DNA from: Microthyrium microscopicum
Taxonomy: Eukaryota
DNA: 64,000 bases
Direction of reading: 5' to 3'
NCBI GenBank assembly: GCA_010405405.1
Contig: MU004244.1
Location: forward strand, 189,895-253,894
A program made the translations under genes and the position numbers. Under the pieces are notes generated by a model. The model had not been told where the DNA came from. It was given only the letters and a program-made list of their open reading frames with translations, and ran no database searches. Below, piece after piece: positions 20,606-33,131 of this stretch (its first letter is position 1; every line of letters begins with the position of its first letter).

Positions 20606-23600
20606 ATGGCCAGCGCTCTTCAAAAGCAGTTGGCTGCAATTGCTGCAAAATCTACCCACCAATTGGATCTCAAGGCCCAGCGCGCTGCCCATGGAAAATC
20701 TCTTCTCTTCGATCCAAAGCATGCTGTTACCCAGAACTTCGACTCGTTATACCAGATCTGCCTCGAAGGCTTCTCCGACTTATGCATGCTGGACCCACGG
20801 TTCATACCCTTTTCGAACAATATATTTAGCGAACAAAGCATAGACGAGGAGCGGGAGCAGATGACTGCGACTCAGAATGAGGAACTGAATTCGGTTCTTC
20901 AAGCATTTCTTGGATTGGTTAGCTCTTCTCTGCTACTCAAACCGGGACAGAAAGCCATCGAATGGACGATACGAAGATTTCGAGTCCACGAATACAACAC
21001 CGAGGATCTCATTCTCTGCTTCTTGCCATACCACACCACACATTTGTTTGTCAAACTTCTGTCTATACTGCCACAGAATATACCGCAGACTTGCAAATTC
21101 ATTCAACCGTACATTTCCTCCTTATCGAGCCCTCCTATACGCGCCATATCCTACTCCGCCACAAACACCCCAGCATTCTTCTCCCTCCTTAACCAACACA
21201 TTCTTCGAATTGCCCGAGCAAAGTGTCACTCGAGCGCTCTACTGAGTTTCTGGTCGAGCATCGCCACTCAAGCTGTTGAGGGCATGTTGACTGGGGCACA
21301 ATCAGGAATTGCAACTATCAGAAAAGAACGTACGGAAAATGCTCTGCTCCAGATAATACCAGTTCTCAATGACGCGCTGGCAATTAAGGGGATACCTGAA
21401 CTTGACATTGCAGTATTCATGATCATAATTATTCTAGCGGCTCGGGCTGATATGAATGATGAGACTGTGGACAGCCTGATGGAAGCAGTTACCATGAATT
21501 GGGACAAAACAACTGCCAATCTTCGCTTCATTTGCTTAGCAGCACTAGCACAAGAGAGACATTCAAAGAAGCTTTCCAAGCCTGTCGCAAAACGACTTGT
21601 CGCTGTTGATGGGCTCTTTGATGGCTTGAGTGACATCTCCACAACATACAGAGCCAGTAAGCTGATACAAGGTCTGATGCTGCGATGCATTGATCGTTTG
21701 AAAAAGCCGGGCGGTCAAAAGGAGTTCGGTATAATCCGCAAAGGCTTTGAGAGTAAACTTTTGAGCCAAAAAGAATACCAGAAAGTCCTTCAATCGCTCA
21801 TAACGGTTGTTCTCCTATGGAACTACAAAAATCTTGCGCAACCAGAGGAATTGGACTGGAATGCCCTACAGGACGTGGGGGAATTCTTCAATAGTATCAC
21901 TCTCCCAATTGACTTGTCGGACAGCCAGAAGCAAGATTTACAAAAACTGGAGCTACTCCTACAAGTCTCAATAATACCTGAAGATGTAGAACCTGAGCAA
22001 TCGGCACTTCCAAGCGTGGAACCTGAGCGACCTGCCACACCAATGGAAATCGATTTCGAAGGCACTATTCTGGAATCAGATATCTCTGGCGTTTCATTTC
22101 TCGATGGGCCCCATTCGAGTGGCTTCAATAAAATCGCAAGTCTTTTCGGACAAGCCGCTCGGAATAGCGTCGATCTTCACAGTTTTATTGAGCAAGGTAT
22201 CTTAAGAAAGAATGGGGCACAGACTGGCGACACACGTTACGTTACCTTGCTGGTTCGAATCGCTTGTTCAGAGCGCCCGGTTAGCGTGCGATCCACAGCT
22301 CTCAAACTCCTAGCTGACGAACTCGACGCTCTTTTTACAGCGGAATGGAACTGTCAAGTCATCCTTCCATACCTGATCTCAGGCCTGGCAGACCAATCCG
22401 CGCAGATAAGACGAGGTGCAGCTCAGTGTATTGTCAAGTTCTCCAAACCCACGGACAACCAGCCAAAGGCTCAAATCTGGGGCGATAATAAAATATACTC
22501 TGAAGGAAGTGCGACGAAATTGTCACAAGAACATACGCTGACTCTGGTCAAATCAATTCTATCGCCAAAGCTAGAAGAATGCATTCTGAGCGCCGAAACC
22601 ATTTTCGCCGTATTCACATCATCTTTATCCAGCACAGACTCAAAAAAGACCAATAGTTCTCATTCGGAGCCGCATGCTATCTCCAAGCTTGCACGGGCAG
22701 ATATCTGTGACTTTTTGGCCGGCCACGCCGCTCTTACAGGAATCATGTCCGTGAAATCTCAATTGGTCGTCTTGCTGAACAGCCTTGGCAAAGCGGCATT
22801 GAATGCGCAGTCTACCATCATTCTGCCATTCATCAAACGCTGGAGCACTCTTTCACCAGCGAATGTGGAGTTGGCTTGCAACGGCCAGGGCGTCAAGCTA
22901 GAGACAATAAACCAGCACCTTCTACAGTCAATTACTCATCGCGACGCTGCCAGTTTACAATACCTCGCCGAACTTGTTTTGACTCCCAAAGACCGACAAG
23001 ATCTAATAGCACCAAGCCATGCTCGTCTCATAGAGTTGTGGACGACATTGGATATACATATGCGACAAGCAGTGCTTATTGAATTCACCACAATAAGCCT
23101 GAGACCACGAAACTCCAAGCTCGATAATGCCCCCGAACAGGCTAAGACATCATTGAGAAATCTGCCTCTGACTTCTGATGACCTTGGCTTCTTGTTGTCG
23201 TCTTTACCAAAGGCGACTAATATGCCCGCTGGACCCGCTGCGAAGAGAAGAAGGACTAGTCAGACTCGTTCTTCTAGGCCCGAGCAAGCGCCGAAAGAAA
23301 CGATTGAAGCACTAAGAGGTTACAATCTCGTCCTTGAACTAGTGGACTCTTGTCAGCCAGCACAGCATCCTCAGCTCCTTGGCCCGCTTTTTGAAGTCTT
23401 GAACGAACTTCAGGTGTTTTCTTCGCAAACAAATAATGCTCTCATCTACCTCAAAAGCTCTACTATCAACTCACTCTTTGCCATCGTGGACAAGCTGAAG
23501 AACACGAAGGAGGTGCCGAAGGATAAAACGGCTATTCGAACAGATCTTGTCGTGGACACAATACGGACTACTAGCAACATACAACTTCAGAATGAGGCAC

Positions 23601-26002
23601 TACTTTTAGTGTCTTGTTTGGCGGTTTGGATTCCAGAAGTCGTTCTCCACAGTGTTATGCCTATATTCACACTAATGGGAACGACAATTCTACGTCAAGG
23701 TGATGACTATTCAGCCCATGTTATTGACCAGACAGTTTCACGAGTTGTCCCTCCTCTTGTTGCTTCGCTTAAGAAGCGTAGCCGTGAGGTCGTCAGTGGA
23801 GTTTCTGATTTGCTCGTGAGCTTTACAGCCGCGTTTGAGCATATACCTTCGCACAGACGACTCGTACTCTTCCAGCATGTTGTGGAAGCGTTAGGGCCAA
23901 AAGATTGTCTCTTTGCAGTTGTATGCATGATCCTGAATCAGCACCGATCAGACTTTTCAGCACGACAGTTCGTTATCGATCTAGTCAACCAATTTGATGC
24001 AGAGATCCAATTGGGAATGCTCATACAGAGCGTGGATTTGATTGCGGACATCTTCCGTCCTCGCCGTTCGATGTCAGAAGTTGTTCTTAATATCAAAGAG
24101 AAGAAAGAGATGGTCGATCAGATCACAGCGCAGAATCTGATTGAGGCGCTTTCGGAACTGCTAACAAGCAGTGTTGTGAGATCGAAAATTGCCGAGTCGT
24201 TTGACTTTGGAAGCACCGACTCAGAAGCACAACAAAAGCGATTTACACAATTGATGAGTGGAGCAATCGGCCTCATGCAACTCTTCAAAGGCAAGACGTG
24301 TGAAGGAGCATCGAAAGAACTGCTCTCGAGTGTGTTCAGAGTGCTTCCTGTCAGCGAGCTGATTGGCTGTGCAAAGATGCTATTAAGCACATCCACCGAA
24401 GAAGTTCGCATTATACTCATCCAGTCCGCAAGCTCTCAAGTCAACAGCAGTCGTTTATCGGATCAGAAAGCCGCTACAGCTTTCTTGGAATTCATACCGG
24501 ATCTCAGCCAAGTTATCAGCCAAGCCAAGTCAGTGCAAGAAAAGAGCAGTTCCATATCATGCATCCACCAAATTGCCAAACTATTTGGAAAGCTGGATTC
24601 TTCGCAGGTTCTTTCAGCGGTTTCAGTCATCCTGGGAGACACTTGTATCGGAAGTGGAGAACTATCATTACAGGTTCAGTGTCTCTCTGCTTTGGCATCA
24701 ATGATTAAAGCACTGAAGGAAGACATGTTGCCTCATATCACTTCGATTCTCACCATCACCGACAATCTTCTGCAAAATGATCTCCAATCTGATCAACCTA
24801 GCAGTGAGCTTCATGATATGGCTTTCACAGTCATCAACGCTGTTGGAGATACACTTCCATTCCTCTTGACTGGGCGACAACTTGACAGTGCTATTCATCT
24901 CGCTCAACTTTCCAGCAACAAGCCAACTGATCAACCCACATCAACGCGCGATCATTTCTATCAAATTGTTGCAGAGCGTGTAGACCCTGCGGAAGCATTT
25001 GCGGCGATTGAGCGCAATTTCGAATGGACTCTCAACAACCAAGGTTTCGATGCGATTGTTGATTACTACAAGCTGGTGAAGGGTGCCATATCTGCCCATT
25101 CCAAGTCGAACATCATCAAAAACGCTACTGTGCTACTCAAATTCGTGAAGCAAGCAATGAACATACGGGCTCTCAAAGCTGCTGATGATGATAACTTGAT
25201 TATTTCAGCCACTGAGGCAGAAGATTTAGAGCTACTTATCATTGATGTAGCTTTGAGTTTGGTACTCAAATTGAACGATGCCATATTCAGACCCTTCTTC
25301 ATACAGCTCGTGGATTGGGCTGTCTTCCAACCAACTCAGATGAAGCCAGCTTCCGTGGCGAGAGCAACCACTCTTTTCCACTTCTTGAAGGCACTGCTTT
25401 TCCGACTCAAGGGACTGATGACAGGCTATATGAGCTACGTGCTGGAATTCATTTCGAATCTTCTTCAGTCAGATCTTACAGTAGACGAGCTCAAGCAAGC
25501 TCTACTCGTTGCGATGCTCGGCTCAGCAAGACAGAGTTTCGACTGTGACGAAGACGGTAAGCAAACTCTACAATTGATAAACGGAATAAACTAACATTTT
25601 CCAGAATTCTGGCAATCCCCGTCACACTTTACCGCCATCGCTAAACCCCTCCTCAGCCTCCTTGGTCAGAAACTAGGCGCCATCACAAACGACAGTGTCA
25701 TTCCAGCCATCACTTCCTTTGCGGTTGCCGCTGCATCAAATGACCACCTCAAAGTGCTCAACACCGACATTCTACACATGTTCCGCGCAGAGTCTCCATT
25801 TACGCGGCTGGCAGCGGTCAAGTGTCAACATAGCTTGACGGAAGAGTTGGGTGAAGAATGGCTGGCTCACTTGCCGGAGATGTTACCTTTCATGACTGAG
25901 ATGCTAGAAGATGATGATGAGAAGGTGGAACGGGAGACGCGAAGCTGGATTCGAAGTGTGGAGAAGATTATGGGAGAAAGCTTAGATAATATGCTGCAGT
26001 AA
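20606..26002 (+). CDS. UTP10: U3 snoRNA-associated protein 10 (HEAT repeats, BP28CT); intron at ~25557-25604
   Basis: MASALQKQLAAIA...SLLFDPK, EWTIRRFRVHEYN, VLHSVMPIFT, LKLNDAIFRPFF, C-terminal LPEMLPFMTEMLEDDDEKVE...MGESL. Confidence 0.96.
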
Positions 26003-26185: not shown

Positions 26186-27399
26186 CTTATAATGGGCACA
26201 ACTCCACTTCCCACCACCGCTTGATGCAAATCAATACCCACTACAATCATTTGAAATGTTTCAGCCTCATAAGCTATGCAAGCTGGTAACTAATAGGGAG
26301 ACTAAGGAATGTGAGAAGAAAATTGACACTACGTTAATCTAGGAAGGCTCGAAGCAAAATTAGGGAAAGTGCGGATGCTATGGGAGAAGGTGCGATTTTG
26401 GGTGCTCAAGAGGTCTTGCCTTATGAGACAAATCCAGCTTCCGTTCCAGGAAAGTGCTGCTCCTAGAATGTTAATGCCTAGACTGGAAAGAGCCATCAAG
26501 ATCTTGCCAGAAAATGAAAAGACTCTACCAGGATTATAAAGAGGAGCTGCTTATAAGACTTCCAGTACTTCCGTATCTAGTAATGGCAGAAAAAGTACCA
26601 CGCAAGCAATTTCTACGAGCCACATGCGCATGTAGATTTAAGAACTGTATCTGGTGGAACTGACCTCCCTCTAGAGACCGGCTAGAAGAAAATTCGTTGT
26701 AAAAAAGCACCAGTAGCACATGAACGATAGATTCTAGCAAGAAAGATTTCACTAACTGTCCTCCAAAGTTGAAGAAAACAACAGGCGCTACCCAACCACC
26801 AGTTGGTGCAATCAATCTATAAACTTGGGAGAAGGCTTTTCCAATGATCGCAATCAGAAAACACGAATAAGAAGTTTACTGAATTCCATACTTTACAAAA
26901 GGGACAAGATTGATTTGAGCCCAAAGACGACGGAAACTGAATCATTCACTTAGCATAAATTGTTGCTGACGGTTCAATTATAACGGCAGCGTCAAATGGC
27001 AAATACAAAGCTTTTTGAAAGTTGAACCTGAGTCAAGTACGTGGTGCTTATCTATTTGTTCAAGGTCTGGGCGTGACGGAAGACGGTGACATTGATTGGG
27101 TGGATAAACATCGTCGTGGAGGACCATAACACAGGCTGCGGGGACGCGCGGAGTGCCTTATGTAAAAGGATCAACCGCAACCCGTGGCAAGAAGAGTGGA
27201 GCAGCTTTACGAGTACTGCATTACACGATCTGAAAAACGAGTGAAAAGGTATTGATATGAAACGGGATGGTATTCCGAGAGTTTTCTATAGATTAGTTCA
27301 CTGGTTGTTACTCATTGCGGCATTGAATGGTAGGGATGGCTGATAGAAGAAGTGTTTGTTGTATTACAACGAAACTGCCAATCCTGAACTTTGCTCTTT

Positions 27400-29595
27400 G
27401 AAAAGGTAGGAATAAGAGTCACTATTGGAAGAAAGCTTATTCCGAGCTTTCGAGAGAGAAAACCAAGCATTGGGGATCCCGAGATCGTCATTGGTGATAT
27501 AGCAGCTTCATAAACAGGTGATATAGCAGCTTCATAAACAACGAATGCAAGAACAACCAATACTTGATCAAGGTATCTGAAAATATGGGAATAACAGTAC
27601 TTCAGTCCAATAAGCTTATTTCGAACTATTTAGACTCTAAGATCTAGTATTGGTGATTTTGCAGGGCAGAGCATTGAATTCAGAGTACACGTTGTGGAAG
27701 ACTCTTGCAACCTTGTCTAGAGCAATCCTTTGTTTAAGGAAACTTCTGGAACGGTAGGAATAAGACTTGTTAGGCAGGAAAATCTTATTCCGATCTTTAT
27801 AGGAACTATACTCTAGTGTTGGTGATGGCACAGATCGTAAACAACCCCTAGTTCTATGCGGACTACTCGCCACATGTGTTGCTTACATGCAAGGGACTGG
27901 TCAACTCAAACCTTGATCAATGGTTTCAAAAAGATAGGAATAAGAGTTTATTATCCTCGAAAAGTTTATTTCGGCCTTTTCGCAGTGTTTAGTTAACATA
28001 TAGGAGTTGAGTAAATTTGAAAGTTGAAAAAATGGCCTCCGTACGTATGTATGCGCCTACCCATTGAAATGATCAAGCCTAGATGAATCTTTCTAAAAAT
28101 ATAGGAACAAGCTCTAAATAATGAAGAACTCTTATTCCTATCTTTATAGAAAGACCGTTATCAAGTTAGCATAACTCCTTCAATACTGCTCGGCATTCTT
28201 CAAAAATGTAAGAATAAGCTTGTTGTATCATGCTAAACTTATACCTACTTTTCTATATCGATTGGCCTATGCGTGGTTGAGTTATACTAAAACTGCCAAC
28301 TTTACGCTGCATTGTCTAGAAAGTTAAGAACAAGATTAAATCACTATCAAAAGCTTATTCCTGGCTTTTCAAGTGTGTTCGAAGCTCCATTGCTGAGTTA
28401 CTTATAAACTGCGAACCGTTGCGTGCATTGTTTGGAGAAATAGGGGTAAGTTATCCCTGTCAGGAGGTCATACATGCTCCAAAATTCTGAGTTCCCACCA
28501 TTATATTAGCTAGCCACTCGCATACTGTACTACACCCTTTCAAAAGATAGACATAAGCTTTTCTCCATATGTACAAGAGGCTTATTCCTATCTTTTTGAA
28601 CCGTTACAACCAACCGTTGCGATAATAGTAAAAAATCGTCAATTCTGCGCTGCATTCTTTGAAAACATAGGAATAAGCTCTTCTTTCCAGACGAACCTTA
28701 TTCCTAAATTTTCAAGGCAACCAGACGTTAGATGGATGTGTTATGAAGGTTTGTTACTGAAAAAAGGGGTAAATAGTGGTAAGTGGAATGATCTGAAGCA
28801 TCCACGAATCTACAGTAACCAGATGATCGACTCCTCATCACCTTGTGCTTTTCGGAATAAGCTAATGTGCACGAAAAACGCCTATTCCTATAATTTGCTA
28901 TCTCATAGCCCAGCAACCCTCGAGTTGAAGTATCTCAACAACGAGTAGTCTGATGGCTCTGAAAATATGGGAATAAGCTTTCTTACACAAATCAAGCTAT
29001 TCCTGGAATATCAAAGCCATATCTACATTATAGCTCGAGATACATCAACTCGCCTATTTTCACGTCTTTTCCTCCACAAATATAGGAGCAAGCTTTTTTA
29101 CATGGATAATGCTCATTCCTATACTTTAGAATCGATAGCTCCACCACAACCCTTTATACAATAATTAACTCAATTCAGATCACATAGACTTGAAAATCTA
29201 CGAACAAGCTTCTTCAATTACCCACTGCTTATTCCTGGAATTCTGAACCTGTATGTCTACTGTACCTTGAGATATATAATAACTCGCTCAATTTACCTTA
29301 CCTCACTCCAAAAACGTAGGATTAAGCTTCTCTACTCAAACAATACTTAGTCCTATGTTTTCAGGTCTATAGATACACCAAAGCCTAAGATATAATAACT
29401 CATTTAATCTTTCATATTTTGCTCCCAAAACATACGAATAAGCTTTTCTATTTGAATAATACTTATTCCTATCTTTTGAAATCCGCACGTGTGTCACAGC
29501 TTTAGTTATCATAACTCAATTATTTTGGCTGATATGAATATATAATCATAGGAATAAGCTAATACAAACTAGAATAGCCTACTCCTATATTTGTA
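27400..29595. repeat. Array of 17 degenerate palindromic sites TAGGAATAAG-N19-CTTATTCCTA, period ~116 bp (right part) or ~167-180 bp (left part)
   Basis: Left arms start at 27407, 27586, 27755, 27935, 28102, 28209, 28325, 28441, 28548, 28668, 28852, 28968, 29083, 29199, 29317, 29433, 29549; spacer is 19 nt in 13 of 17 units; most flanked by AAAA/TTTT. Confidence 0.93.
27493..27540 (+). repeat. Perfect 24-bp tandem duplication GGTGATATAGCAGCTTCATAAACA
   Basis: Two identical adjacent copies. Confidence 0.95.
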
Positions 29596-29692
29596 GACTT
29601 CTAGATATACTATAGCCTAAGATATAGCAACTCGCTCGTTTTAGCTACCTTGTTCCCATGTTCTGGGACCCAAATAGCATCCACTCTTCGTA

Positions 29693-30082
29693 GACAAAAT
29701 GAGTGAGCCGTTTCAACACCTACTCCCATCGATTGCGATGGCCGCCATAACACTTGTCAAAGAGTGAATGCTTTACACCCGTTTGCGAAAAGTGATGATC
29801 ACCGATCCTCCTCCCCTGTATCATATCTTTTGCTGGTTTCTACCAATCACAGACTAAATAGCCTTCTTCAAGTTCGGTATCATCGATTTAGCGTCCCAGA
29901 TAACTACTTTGTTAGCTATCTAGGTTGTGATTTTCATGAAAACCAATATACGGGGGGATGTCTTATGTTTACCTCGGATTATCTAATACCATTGGTAATC
30001 AAAGTAGCCGCTCTTGAAGAGGTGTTATGGCGGCCATCGCACTCGATGGGATTGCTCGTCAAAATGGCTCGCTTATTTTGTC
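29693..30082. mobile_element. 390-bp element with ~85-bp imperfect inverted repeats (MITE-like or element-end relic)
   Basis: 29724-29753 and reverse complement of 30022-30051 match at 29/30; similarity extends outward (GACAAAATRAGYGAGCC) and inward (AAGAG..CTTT). Confidence 0.6.
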
Positions 30083-30680
30083 CCTTGAGAGATCCACTAC
30101 AGCTTGCTCCGACCGCATGAAAAAGTAATTGACGTTCTCCCATTAGCTGATGGCTCTTACGAACGCTTCTAATCAGAGGTGTTACATTTTCCATCGCTTT
30201 CAAAATATCCGGGGAAACGCGCCAGCTAGTAAATAAAGCGCTCCATAGCAGAGCGTGTTGTGTGGGATTCATCGAAGTCGATGAGCGCACGCCATTTATT
30301 TTGTCTACCGGATGAGATCCAATAAACAAATCTGCGATATTATCGATAAGACACTTCGCACGTTTCACAAAACAAGATTGCACAATGTTTGGTAGCTCAC
30401 GCAAATATGATTTTTACCCCAGCGTTGAGCGGGTGGGTATCACAAAGTACATATAAAAAACATTCAGCTCTTTCCGAGTTGAGAACGGGCATACAATGAC
30501 CACGCTTTTAATGTTGAAAACTTTTCGCCTTGAACTCCTTCAAAATCAAAAGCCATGAGGTTCTCTCACCATCGCAAGCAGAACCTTTCCCCTATCCTTG
30601 GTATTTTGGGCTGTTGAACAGCAAAAAGCTAAAACGCCGGTGTTGAATGGATCGCCAATGCATTAGTCAAAAATTGTGCT

Positions 30681-33131
30681 CTAAGCCTTCTCCTCCTTTT
30701 GGCGGTAGAACTTGGCCGCATTCACCATGTTGACGAGAGCGGCTTTAGTCTCCGCCCATTGACGAGTTTTGAGACCACAATCGGGGTTGACCCAGAGTTG
30801 ATCTGGTCGGAGGTATCTGATTTTGTTAGTCAAAGAAGTAACATTGGATGGAAATACTAACTGAAGCATTTCTGCGATGCGGTCCTTGATCTCTTGCTCG
30901 CTTGGAACACGAGGAGAGTGAATGTCGTACACACCAGGACCAATGTGACGTGGGTAAGCTTCCTCAACAAAGACCTTGAGGAGCTTAGCATCACTCTTGC
31001 TGTTCTCGATGGAAAGAACATCAGCATCAAGAGCGGCAATGGCATGGAAAAAGTCCTGGAATTCAGAGTAGCAGAAATGGCTGTGGATCTGGGTGGAATC
31101 CTTGACACCAGAGACCGAGAGGCGGAAGGATTCAACAGCCCACTTGAGGTAAGCATCTCTCTCACTTCCCTTGCGAAGTGGGAGACCTTCACGAAGAGCA
31201 GGTTCGTCAACCTGGATGACATAGATGCCAGCTGACTCGAGATCAACGACTTCATCGCGAAGAGCAAGAGCAAGTTGTTGAGCCTGGACAGATTGATGAA
31301 CGTCATCACGAGGGAAAGACCATCTCAAGCAGGTAATTGGTCCAGTGAGCATACCCTTCATTGGCTTCTTGGAGACAGATGCGGCATATTTGGACTCCTT
31401 GACGGTCATCGGGGCAGGACGAGAGATGTCGCCGACAATGATTGGAGGACGAACACATCGAGATCCATAGGACTGGACCCAGGCGTGTGTAGTAAAGACA
31501 TAACCATCCAGACGCTCGCCAAAGTATTGAACCATGTCGTTACGCTCGGGTTCGCCGTGGACGTAAACGTCAAGATCAAGCTCATCTTGAACCTTGATGA
31601 CATCGTCAATTTCCTTCTCGATGAACTTCTCATACTCTTCGGCAGTGATGTCACCCTTGGTGAACTTGTTACGTTGAATACGGATTTCCTTGGTTTGTGG
31701 GAAAGATCCGATGGTGGTGGTAGGGAAGAGTGGGAGCTTGAGATGTTCTTTTTGAGCAGCATATCTAGCTGGGAACTCGGATTGACGATTGTGCTGTTCT
31801 GGGGTAACCTTTGCTTGACGGTCCTTCACAGCAGCGTTGTTGGTTCGCTTAGACTCGGCACGGGACTTCATCGAAGCAGCGTTGGCCTCGAGTAGATCCT
31901 TGACGGCAGCTGGTCCTTCAGTGATAGCCTTGGCAATAACAGCAACTTCAGAAGCTTTTTGAACAGCGAAAGAGAACCAGTCTTTGACTTCAGAGTCGAG
32001 CTTCTTCTCGCTTTCGAGAGTGTGAGGTACATGGAGTAAAGAACTGGAAGTGGCAACGATAACACGGTCCTTTCCAAGCTTCTGGATGGCAGTCTCGACA
32101 GTCTCAATGGCGCGCTTGAAGTTGGTCTTCCAGATATTTCGACCATCAACGACACCAGCAGAAAGAACTTGGTTGGATCCGAGTTGACCGAGAACACCCT
32201 CTAGCTGCTCTGGGTTACGGACAAGGTCGACGTGGATACCGTGAACATTCTTAAGTGCTGGGAAGACGTCAAAGTTGTGAACGATGTCGCCGAAATATGT
32301 TGCCAAAACCAAGTTTGGGATGCTGCTGCCAGATAGTGCTTCATAGGCAGGCTTGAACGCATCCTTGACCTCTTGGGGAAGATCAAAGACCAAGATTGGC
32401 TCGTCGATTTGAACAGTCTCAGCTCCAGCTTGCTTGAGCTTCTCGAGAAGCTCCTTGTAGACAGGGAGAAGCTTTTGAATGAGAGAGATTGGCTTCACGG
32501 ATTGATCACGATCAGCTTTTCCGAGGAAGAGGAAGGAGACGGGACCAAGGACAACTGGTCGAGTTGTAATACCAGCCTCTTTGGCCTCGAGGAATTCGCG
32601 GACGGGTTTGGGGTCGGCAGAGAGCTTAAATGATTGTCCATCTTGGAATGTTGGCTTGACATAGTGGTAGTTAGAGTCGAACCACTTGACCATTTCCTAA
32701 AAGACATTAGTCCATGTTCGAAGACAGCTGAAAACGAATTCTCGTACCAGACTTGGAACATCGATGCCATCCTTTTGGTGACCACGGCCCATTGCAAAGT
32801 ACTCGTCAATGGGGTCAAGGCCATGCTTAGAATACCGTTCTGGAATAGCCTTTGAATACAAGTTAGCATTGAGGCTTGTATGATACGAAAGAGTTCATAC
32901 ATTGAATAGTTGAATGTGATCAAGGACTTGGTCGTAGAAGGCAAAGTCATTGCTGGGAATGCTGTCAACACCAGCATCCTTTTGAATTTTCCAATGAGCA
33001 AGACGAAGACGCTTTCCCTCGGAGAGTAAATCTTCGCGAGAGAGTTTACCGCCCCAGTAAGCTTCAGTTGCTTTCTTGAGGTCGCGAAGGACGCCCATAC
33101 GAGGGAAACCGAGAACTGATGATTGAACCAT
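30681..33131 (-). CDS. MET6: Cobalamin-independent methionine synthase (three introns)
   Basis: MVQSSVLGFPRMG, MVKWFDSNYHYV, TTTIGSFPQT, HGEPERNDMVQYF, HFCYSEF, WVNPDCGLKTR. Confidence 0.98.

Follow-up and report, generated by a model that had tools for sequence, protein, structure and literature searches.

The stretch of DNA analysed here (64,000 nucleotides of contig MU004244.1 from Microthyrium microscopicum, hereafter the window) is, judging from its gene content and introns, eukaryotic and fungal, that is, from a filamentous fungus. Between the 3' ends of two convergent genes, UTP10 and MET6, about 4.4 kb were found in which a scan for open reading frames (ORFs) gave no convincing candidate, and this interval holds the 2.2-kb array of palindromic sites with which this study is concerned. 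A regular lattice of sites, a double symmetry, co-linear units and one inversion were observed there. We consider the whole to be probably a tandem array, old and non-coding, whose unit is palindromic (foldback-type) and has two dyad axes, and in which one inversion is a fossil.

Sites were searched for as two 10-nt arms (AGGAATAAGC and its complement) lying 13-23 nt apart, with up to three mismatches in each arm and up to five in total; the two arms of a site are therefore written below as AGGAATAAGC and GCTTATTCCT. Sixteen such sites were found in the array, all of them within 27408-29586 and with 0-5 arm mismatches, and the rest of the window gave four borderline matches of five mismatches each, compared with 1-4 matches in shuffled windows. 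The spacer measured 17 nt in 13 of the 16 sites, so that a site is 37 bp long, and the palindrome continued leftward into an A-run and rightward into a T-run, which gives about 22 paired positions. Start-to-start spacing was 167-184 bp at the left of the array and between sites 10 and 11, and 107-120 bp (mostly 116) elsewhere. Exactly 79 nt were counted in 7 of the 11 short linkers (70-81 nt), the others being of 70, 78 and 81 nt together with the 80-nt stretch after the last site; the five long linkers were of 129-147 nt, with 132-143 nt in those joining sites 1-4. Sites 13-17 (Table 1), taken with the linkers from 12-13 to 17-18, make up a co-linear block in which 116-bp units are directly repeated (direct-repeat families D1, D5 and D8).

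The arms have been kept and the rest has drifted almost without insertions or deletions, as indicated by near-constant lengths and by a mean pairwise identity of 0.765 among the 32 half-arms, compared with 0.383 among the 17-nt spacers and 0.422 among the linker cores. Repeat-induced point mutation (RIP), which is recognised by a TA/AT index above 0.89 with a (CA+TG)/(AC+GT) index below 1.03 and by a majority of transitions, was not supported as the cause of linker divergence: the first index was 1.00 but the second 1.15. Differences among the right-hand linkers comprised 271 transitions and 336 transversions. The 116-bp period was not found by Tandem Repeats Finder, the array being too diverged for that tool. 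Its sole report in the array was a perfect tandem duplication of the 24-bp unit GGTGATATAGCAGCTTCATAAACA at 27493-27540, in linker 1-2, and because no other part of the array is reported this duplication would be recent in an otherwise old array. The only break of the lattice inside the short-period part was observed at 28441-28548, where the arm of site 8 is followed by a small unrelated palindrome (AGGG...CCCT) and by about 100 nt unlike the other linkers.

Table 1. Coordinates in the window of the array, its sites, linkers and symmetric features, and of the flanking features.
Feature	Position	Strand	Basis or remarks
Whole non-coding array	27358..29665		Linker-like lead-in, 16 good palindromic sites, one decayed site, last linker
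Sites 1-4	27408-27444, 27587-27623, 27756-27792, 27936-27973		Left arm ends AAGA (site 2: AACA), right arm ends TTCCG or TTTCG
Sites 5, 6 and 7	28103-28139, 28210-28246, 28326-28362		Palindrome search
Site 8, decayed	28441-28477		Left arm TAGGGGTAAG, no matching right arm left
Sites 9-12	28549-28589 (21-nt spacer), 28669-28705, 28853-28889, 28969-29004 (16-nt spacer)		Palindrome search
Sites 13-17	29084-29120, 29200-29236, 29318-29354, 29434-29470, 29550-29586		Palindrome search
Linker 6-7, 79 nt, mirror-symmetric	28247..28325		Left half, mirrored TAACTC module (GAGTTA 28279); right half, forward module AAACTGCCAAC...CGCTGCATT
Linker 7-8, 78 nt, mirror-symmetric, co-linear with 6-7	28363..28440		GAGTTA 28395; family D3
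Linker 11-12, right-hand-type linker wholly inverted	28890..28968	-	Reverse-complement alignment to 12-13
Linker-centre dyad, example in linker 12-13	29037..29051		GAGATA at 29037 and CAACTC at 29046
Further linker-centre dyad pairs	29269/29280, 29503/29512, 28163/28172, 28922/28931		Register scan
Extended palindrome of about 130 bp, centre site 12	28921..29052 (arms 28921-28962 and 29011-29052)		Cognate left-right identity 22/40, compared with a non-cognate mean of 14.8 (standard deviation 2.2)
Extended palindrome, centre site 2	27546..27663 (arms about 27546-27585 and 27627-27663)		Linker 1-2 against reverse complement of 2-3, local score 30; cognate identity 20/40
UTP10/HEATR1 homologue, left flank	20606..26002	+	Pfam domains U3snoRNP10, BP28CT, HEAT
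MET6/MetE, cobalamin-independent methionine synthase, right flank	30392..32693	-	ORF 30681-32693; gene runs on rightward
Other dispersed repeat abutting the right end of the array	29684..30311		Many contigs, high summed depth at 29684-29771 and 30229-30311

A second symmetry was found in the linkers. The original prediction had described TAACTC-like boxes ahead of left arms and the reverse complement, GAGTTA, behind right arms, and both lie where it had placed them. TAACTC-like boxes (at most one mismatch) at 28172, 29046, 29280, 29396 and 29512 stand 32 nt from the next left arm; those at 29166 and 27902 stand 28 nt from it, and the one at 29628 is in the usual register when this is measured from the right arm. 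GAGTTA was confirmed at 28279 and 28395, at linker position 33 and 32 nt past the right arm, and GAGTTG at 28004, at position 31. Each of the two boxes was in register in 7 of the 11 short linkers, whereas 2000 shuffles averaged about 0.5 and never exceeded 4. A GAGTTA-like box was also present at position 33 of linkers that had been taken as forward, namely 12-13 (GAGATA at 29037), 14-15 (GAGATA at 29269) and 16-17 (TAGTTA at 29503), as well as of linker 11-12 (GAGTTG at 28922), and both boxes occurred together, in the same orientation, in 5 of the 11. A forward MAFFT alignment placed RAG(T/A)TA in one column block in 10 of the 11 linkers. Since linker positions 33-38 mirror positions 42-47, with position 40 (the middle of a 79-nt linker) as the axis, the GAGTTA and TAACTC boxes are better regarded as the two halves of a second dyad than as one motif in two orientations. 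The unit then has a first axis at the centre of the 37-bp site, with the arms AGGAATAAGC and GCTTATTCCT, their A-run and T-run flanks and the variable 17-nt spacer, and a second axis at the centre of the 79-nt linker, where the GAGTTA-like box faces its complement TAACTC, each 32 nt from the nearest arm. The right-hand block, from linker 12-13 to 17-18, is a directly repeated, asymmetric version of this unit. In the mechanism that we propose, the array would have grown by tandem duplication, and the hairpin core would have been kept because it is the part that is recognised.

Linkers 6-7 and 7-8 had been cited as units lying in the opposite orientation, and were expected to fit the right-hand linkers better when reversed. 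We compared both of them with six right-hand linkers, forward and as reverse complement, and the global and local outcomes were mixed rather than those of whole-linker inversion. In global alignment, the mean z for 6-7 was 1.87 forward and 0.46 reversed, and for 7-8 it was 1.16 forward and 0.95 reversed; in local alignment, 6-7 gave a tie (1.49 forward, 1.47 reversed). When the linkers were aligned jointly with MAFFT, the matches of 6-7 to the right-hand linkers fell from 33.2 to 29.0 on flipping, and those of 7-8 rose just from 23.7 to 25.7. At the level of single pairs, forward 6-7 aligned locally to 14-15 with a score of 25 (0 of 500 shuffles), over 30 columns (TTGAGnTATA...AACT...TTTAC), and reversed 6-7 aligned to 16-17 over the box with a score of 23 (2 of 500), while 6-7 and 7-8 aligned to each other forward with a score of 35. 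Reversed 7-8 aligned to 13-14 with a score of 26 over 40 columns (linker cores alone: score 20, z 3.31, 5 of 500 shuffles), its left half matching the TAACTC...CAAT...TTGAAAA half of 13-14 and 14-15.

The right halves of both linkers (AAACTGCCAAC...CGCTGCATT...GAAA) are grouped, as direct repeats, with the left flanks of sites 1, 2, 5, 6, 9 and 10 (families D3 and D12), and these two families connect the left flanks of sites 1, 2 and 5-10 in direct orientation. With a mirrored left module and a forward right module of the same kind, 6-7 and 7-8 are therefore mirror-symmetric, not flipped. Direct orientation also prevailed over larger groups of linkers, the mean z in global alignment being 4.0 forward and 0.39 reversed within the right-hand block and 3.73 and 0.82 within the group from 5-6 to 9-10; among the 30 most similar pairs of 40-nt half-modules, 28 were same-side and two cross-side (12L-12R and 6R-12L). 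The AAGC(T) arm lies on the right in sites 1, 2 and 7 only, in agreement with what had been stated. Nevertheless, when the inner arm bases and the spacer of each core were compared with the right-hand sites, forward and as reverse complement, no significant flip of polarity was found at any site, and the flips at sites 1-4, 7 and 11 suggested by the AAGC arm and the T-rich spacer end were dropped for this reason. The left flanks of sites 1 and 7 are directly oriented with the others.

The clearest inversion was found in linker 11-12, which the original prediction had not cited and which is the sole linker inverted as a whole. Reversed, it aligned to 12-13 with a local score of 32 over 43 columns (z 6.8, 0 of 2000 shuffles), compared with a score of 14 (z -0.5) forward, and it also aligned, reversed, to part of linker 2-3 (28924-28953 against 27680-27711; score 30, 1 of 2000 shuffles). 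Hence the claim that the 116-bp unit occurs in both orientations holds for 11-12 and fails for 6-7 and 7-8, given that the supposedly forward linkers carry the GAGTTA-like box as well and that the two boxes coexist. Because inverted 11-12 stands next to 12-13, site 12 is the centre of a palindrome of about 130 bp; a second extended palindrome is centred on site 2 (Table 1). Palindromic sites bound linker 11-12, which makes a past rearrangement at palindromes plausible for it. It would be the fossil of a single such event, not a working switch, and could have arisen through an inversion for which sites 11 and 12 supplied the inverted arms, or through fold-back (template-switch) copying of linker 12-13 at site 12, a route indistinguishable from the first. 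Thus, the proposal that recombination between inverted arms rearranged the array is retained as a plausible past event at 11-12, but not for 6-7 and 7-8, whose reversed match comprises the left half only.

Several observations weigh against an old array with two dyad axes and one inversion. The central dyad is weak in individual linkers, with only 16-17 reaching the 95th percentile of shuffles, and the best palindrome is centred at positions 40-42.5 in just 4 of the 11. Beyond the 12-nt flank, cognate symmetry is clear at sites 2 and 12 only (mean 15.8, compared with 14.8 for non-cognate pairs), so that an ancestrally palindromic unit is something that we infer. In local alignment, the mean z of 7-8 was 0.37 forward and 1.46 reversed, the reversed value being the higher for five of the six targets, and a half-linker inversion, or an older one, is conceivable there. 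Mirror symmetry and ancient inversions at the palindromes may even be the same history, neither of them being datable. One of four runs from the probable source sample gave a single contig covering 27000-29731; it showed 0 differences, and no joint to the opposite strand was seen within the array. Rare variants are lost from contigs, which makes this single-contig result weak and leaves room for active inversion at low frequency. Finally, as no related array was found in another organism, no between-species comparison stands behind any of these results.

We also analysed the 37-bp cores with their flanks for pairing, using the 13 of 16 sites that have a 17-nt spacer. In the 22-bp stem, 74.1% of the cells were paired, compared with 33.0-46.5% in slid controls. 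Double-sided changes were counted in 19 cells, compared with 11.5 +/- 2.8 in shuffles (2 of 500), and the covariation score was 0.182, compared with 0.140 in shuffles (11 of 500) and with 0.045-0.098 in slid controls. Nearly all double changes fell at the three positions that separate the arm from the A/T run or lay farther out; within the arms it is the sequence that is conserved, and no arm pair showed more than one double change. Kinship among the sequences, or palindrome correction at the DNA level, can give the same result as compensatory change. Taken together, the conserved stems, the drifting loops and some compensatory changes suggest that the cores may have a role at the level of the hairpin.

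The two strands of the cores were also compared. Among the arm mismatches of sites 5-17 read on the plus strand, 16 were A.C and 3 were G.T (p 0.004), the corresponding numbers for sites 1-4 being 0 and 3, and over the full 22 bp the bias gave a Fisher p of 0.017. At 12 of 12 sites among 5-17 the minus-strand fold had the lower energy, and at 8 of the 12 it had the better z-score against shuffles. By our own count from the site table, a run of at least four T follows the stem at 7 of 16 sites on the plus strand and at 11 of 16 on the minus strand. The plus strand of the array is skewed, with more C than G and more A than T. These features are a hint, not proof, of a strand-specific constraint on the cores, either at the RNA level or linked to transcription.

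Our best guess for the function, and a tentative one, is that the core is a hairpin in a transcript. The cores would then be about 17 RNA hairpins, each roughly 60 nt long and comprising a 22-bp stem and a variable loop of 17 nt, which could derive from a long precursor or from mini-genes in which the AT-rich TAACTC box stands at a fixed 32 nt; among the possible roles would be those of Dicer substrates (microRNA-like), of protein-binding hairpins, or of terminator-like structures for read-through from both convergent genes. A stem that is conserved around a loop varying at fixed length, compensatory changes at non-conserved stem positions, the strand bias of transition-type mismatches, the more stable minus-strand fold and the T-runs past the stem are all consistent with such hairpins. 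However, the C-over-G and A-over-T skew of the plus strand alone could yield the mismatch bias; several of the mismatches are shared between sites and, being probably inherited, do not count as independent; conservation of the arms extends to their sequence and is not limited to pairing; and the z-score puts the minus strand ahead at fewer sites than the energy does. Moreover, were TAACTC to act as a promoter box for the plus strand, the strand indicated by the wobble bias would be the wrong one. Rfam 15 gave 0 matches at the gathering score over the whole window, and a permissive scan of 26500-30500 gave two matches at chance level (E 1.4 and 9.2). Box C/D small nucleolar RNAs were considered and rejected on inspection, CTGA standing beside the arms in just 3 of the 32 half-sites. 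In run X7, which is guessed to be RNA, MET6 is covered and no contig falls on 27000-29683, which constitutes no evidence on expression. It seems rather unlikely that the array encodes, in about 17 clustered genes or in one precursor, an undescribed class of fungal hairpin RNAs with a conserved stem of about 22 bp, a hypervariable 17-nt loop and an AT-rich box at 32 nt; their best fold would be on the strand entered from whichever convergent gene is the nearer, and they could serve as a source of small RNAs or as a fail-safe zone of termination or insulation.

Another guess, to be held loosely, is that the array is selfish or neutral foldback-derived DNA in which short conversion tracts would keep the arms alike. 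With 100% complementarity, the left half of site 4 matches the right half of site 5 over 19 nt (27930-27948 against 28127-28145) and that of site 9 over 20 nt (27925-27944 against 28581-28600), a better agreement than with its own right arm (3 mismatches). These matches could reflect short conversion tracts between half-sites or plain retention of the consensus.

A weaker candidate function is that the sites bind a dimeric DNA-binding protein, by 10-bp half-sites lying 17 bp apart in helical phase, and that, lying between the convergent genes, the array could have an insulator, barrier or regulatory role; we regard this as improbable. It would agree with the conservation of both arm halves as sequence, with a spacer of fixed length and free sequence, and with the strict period, 116 bp being about 11 helical turns when calculated at 10.5 bp per turn. 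Three extra contigs at single-copy depth with a 17-nt gap would also fit, since they suggest sites elsewhere in the genome. On the other hand, binding of a symmetric protein predicts neither compensatory changes at non-conserved stem positions nor strand-biased mismatches, no candidate factor is known, and the motif is absent from the literature searched. The three contigs, obtained from run X3 (depth 838-885, compared with 803 for the main one), join arm and flank of different sites at 27948/28578, at 28113/29455 and at 29451/28575/28597/29377, and the spacers at these joints total 17 nt where the intervening letters are given (10 and 4). They are probably further copies of the palindrome located elsewhere in the genome, one of them being followed by linker-like sequence.

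It is likewise doubtful that whole linkers or multi-unit segments were inverted via the inverted arms, possibly to this day in the manner of a shufflon, so that the unit would lie in either orientation with switches at the sites. In its favour, the mirrored TAACTC module stands at the exact mirrored register after sites 4, 6, 7 and 11, linker 11-12 is truly inverted, reversed 7-8 has the local scores given above, and any two sites provide inverted repeats of about 20 bp. Such a history conflicts with the forward right halves of 6-7 and 7-8, which are shared directly with sites 1, 2 and 5-10 (7L and 10L being L-like), with the GAGTTA-like box of the forward linkers, with the excess of same-side half-module pairs, and with the lack of significant flips in core polarity. 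Pfam detected no recombinase or transposase domain in the 29 ORFs of the window, a scan which intron-split genes may escape, and no alternative gene 3' ends were found in the segments, no ORF crossing the array and 116 bp not being a multiple of 3. With no such domain, and with the single, difference-free arrangement of the source contig, shufflon-like switching is unsupported; the host is, besides, a eukaryote, whereas shufflons are bacterial plasmid systems. That the mirrored motifs are mere chance matches, which a motif of 5-6 nt in a region of 63% A+T might allow, is rejected as extremely improbable by the number of linkers with each box in register.

In the search for relatives of the palindromic tandem array, metagenome contigs were scanned with the query GGAATAAG-N19-CTTATTCC, which gave at least 115 loci; among the matches listed, 104 had one site, 8 had two, 2 had none and one was an unrelated 19-bp repeat. 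Neither an array nor shared flanks were found among these listed matches, the best flank agreeing at 11 of 24 positions, and as they look like chance matches we count no relative among them. Elsewhere in the window, no further array was detected (8 shared 13-mers, compared with 1-12 in shuffles). A run from another organism (X5) contains its own MET6, of about 80% identity, and over the array it gave no alignable sequence. At a depth of 2-3, an air metagenome and a run bearing the label of another organism yielded pieces identical to the array (27799-28039 and 28451-28820), and these look like traces of DNA of the same fungus in other samples. Literature searches with the arm and flank motifs returned only primers and unrelated sequences, and no matching description of tandem palindromic arrays in filamentous fungi was found.

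Regarding the flanking genes, the UTP10 ORF extends over 20606-25594 and resumes, past a short intron, to 26002, so that one short intron or more lies close to the 3' end of the gene. In run X7, 45 nt of the MET6 ORF (30817-30861) are spliced out, 30816 being joined to 30862; this intron is in frame, and its retention leaves the ORF open. The MET6 transcript contig of the same run stops at 30392, about 290 nt past the stop codon. The remaining ORFs of the window are housekeeping or otherwise ordinary (COPA/B, KRR1, adaptin, RhoGAP, Kelch and a fungal transcription factor; Pfam, 29 ORFs). The high depth over the two ends of the dispersed repeat that abuts the array was seen in the DNA run as well as in X7. 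This repeat contains inverted repeats (29741-29753 and 30023-30035) and CCATC-N6-GATGG at 29726-29741 and at 30034-30049. It may have cut off an 18th site of the array, because linker 17-18 has the usual boxes yet no site after it.

Compared with known systems, the array has its closest known form, by analogy, in the tandem arrays and satellites made from foldback transposons or miniature inverted-repeat transposable elements (MITEs), an example being Tetris of Drosophila virilis (PMC4079207), with a review in PMC12628747. As in those arrays, the units are non-coding, palindromic and arranged head to tail, with further dispersed copies being probable. In contrast to them, the best-conserved part is here the centre of the palindrome and not the termini of an element, the units are about 40-60% alike outside the arms and yet keep their length, and neither a target-site duplication nor an autonomous partner or transposase was found. 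Candidate boundaries of the unit are the 3-nt gap between the boxes and the 17-nt spacer; the 3-nt gaps read from the linkers (TCA, CAT, GCA, AAG, TAA, TAG, TAC and CTT) have no duplication in common. Small inversions of hairpin loops or segments between short inverted repeats are described for plastid genomes (PMC6342102, PMC12928735). They resemble the present case in that a short segment between inverted repeats of about 20 bp is inverted without a dedicated enzyme, and could serve as a model for the 79-bp inversion of 11-12, whereas the locus studied here is nuclear, fungal and within a tandem array, and no evidence of recurrent flip-flop was found.

Other systems share less with the array. 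Shufflons and invertible segments belong to bacteria and plasmids (R64 Rci/sfx, Hin/Gin). With them the array has in common that inverted repeats bound its segments and that one segment (11-12) is inverted, and it differs in its eukaryotic host, in having no nearby recombinase among the 29 ORFs and no alternative gene ends, in the absence of mixed orientation from the source contig, and in that most mirrored motifs represent built-in symmetry. Clusters of microRNA-like or other hairpin-RNA precursors include the animal miR-430 cluster and fungal microRNA-like RNAs (milRNAs); conserved stems, variable loops and flanks, and many near-identical hairpins in tandem are the points of likeness, but the stem, at about 22 bp, is a short one rich in A/U, and no homologue was found in Rfam. 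CRISPR loci, integron attC arrays and bacterial clusters of repetitive extragenic palindromes (REP) or bacterial interspersed mosaic elements (BIME) all contain palindromic repeats at regular intervals. Palindromic repeats separated by variable DNA of fixed length are a likeness of form only, the present array being eukaryotic, with a variable loop in the repeat itself and with no ORF cassettes, cas, intI or attC core sites. A CRISPR array was rejected on the grounds that the loops differ between sites and that the genes are fungal and have introns. Collectively, the array is not a shufflon, CRISPR or integron array, since those defining features that can be tested are lacking.

A eukaryotic array that shuffles itself would have been remarkable, and this claim mostly dissolves. 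Still unusual in the nuclear genome of a fungus is the strict lattice of 116 bp, in which the stems are kept and the loops and linkers have become near-random without change of length. If the cores are transcribed hairpins or protein-binding sites, the array would represent a new kind of fungal non-coding element; otherwise, it would be a clean example of how palindrome arrays evolve, in which symmetry mimics inversion.

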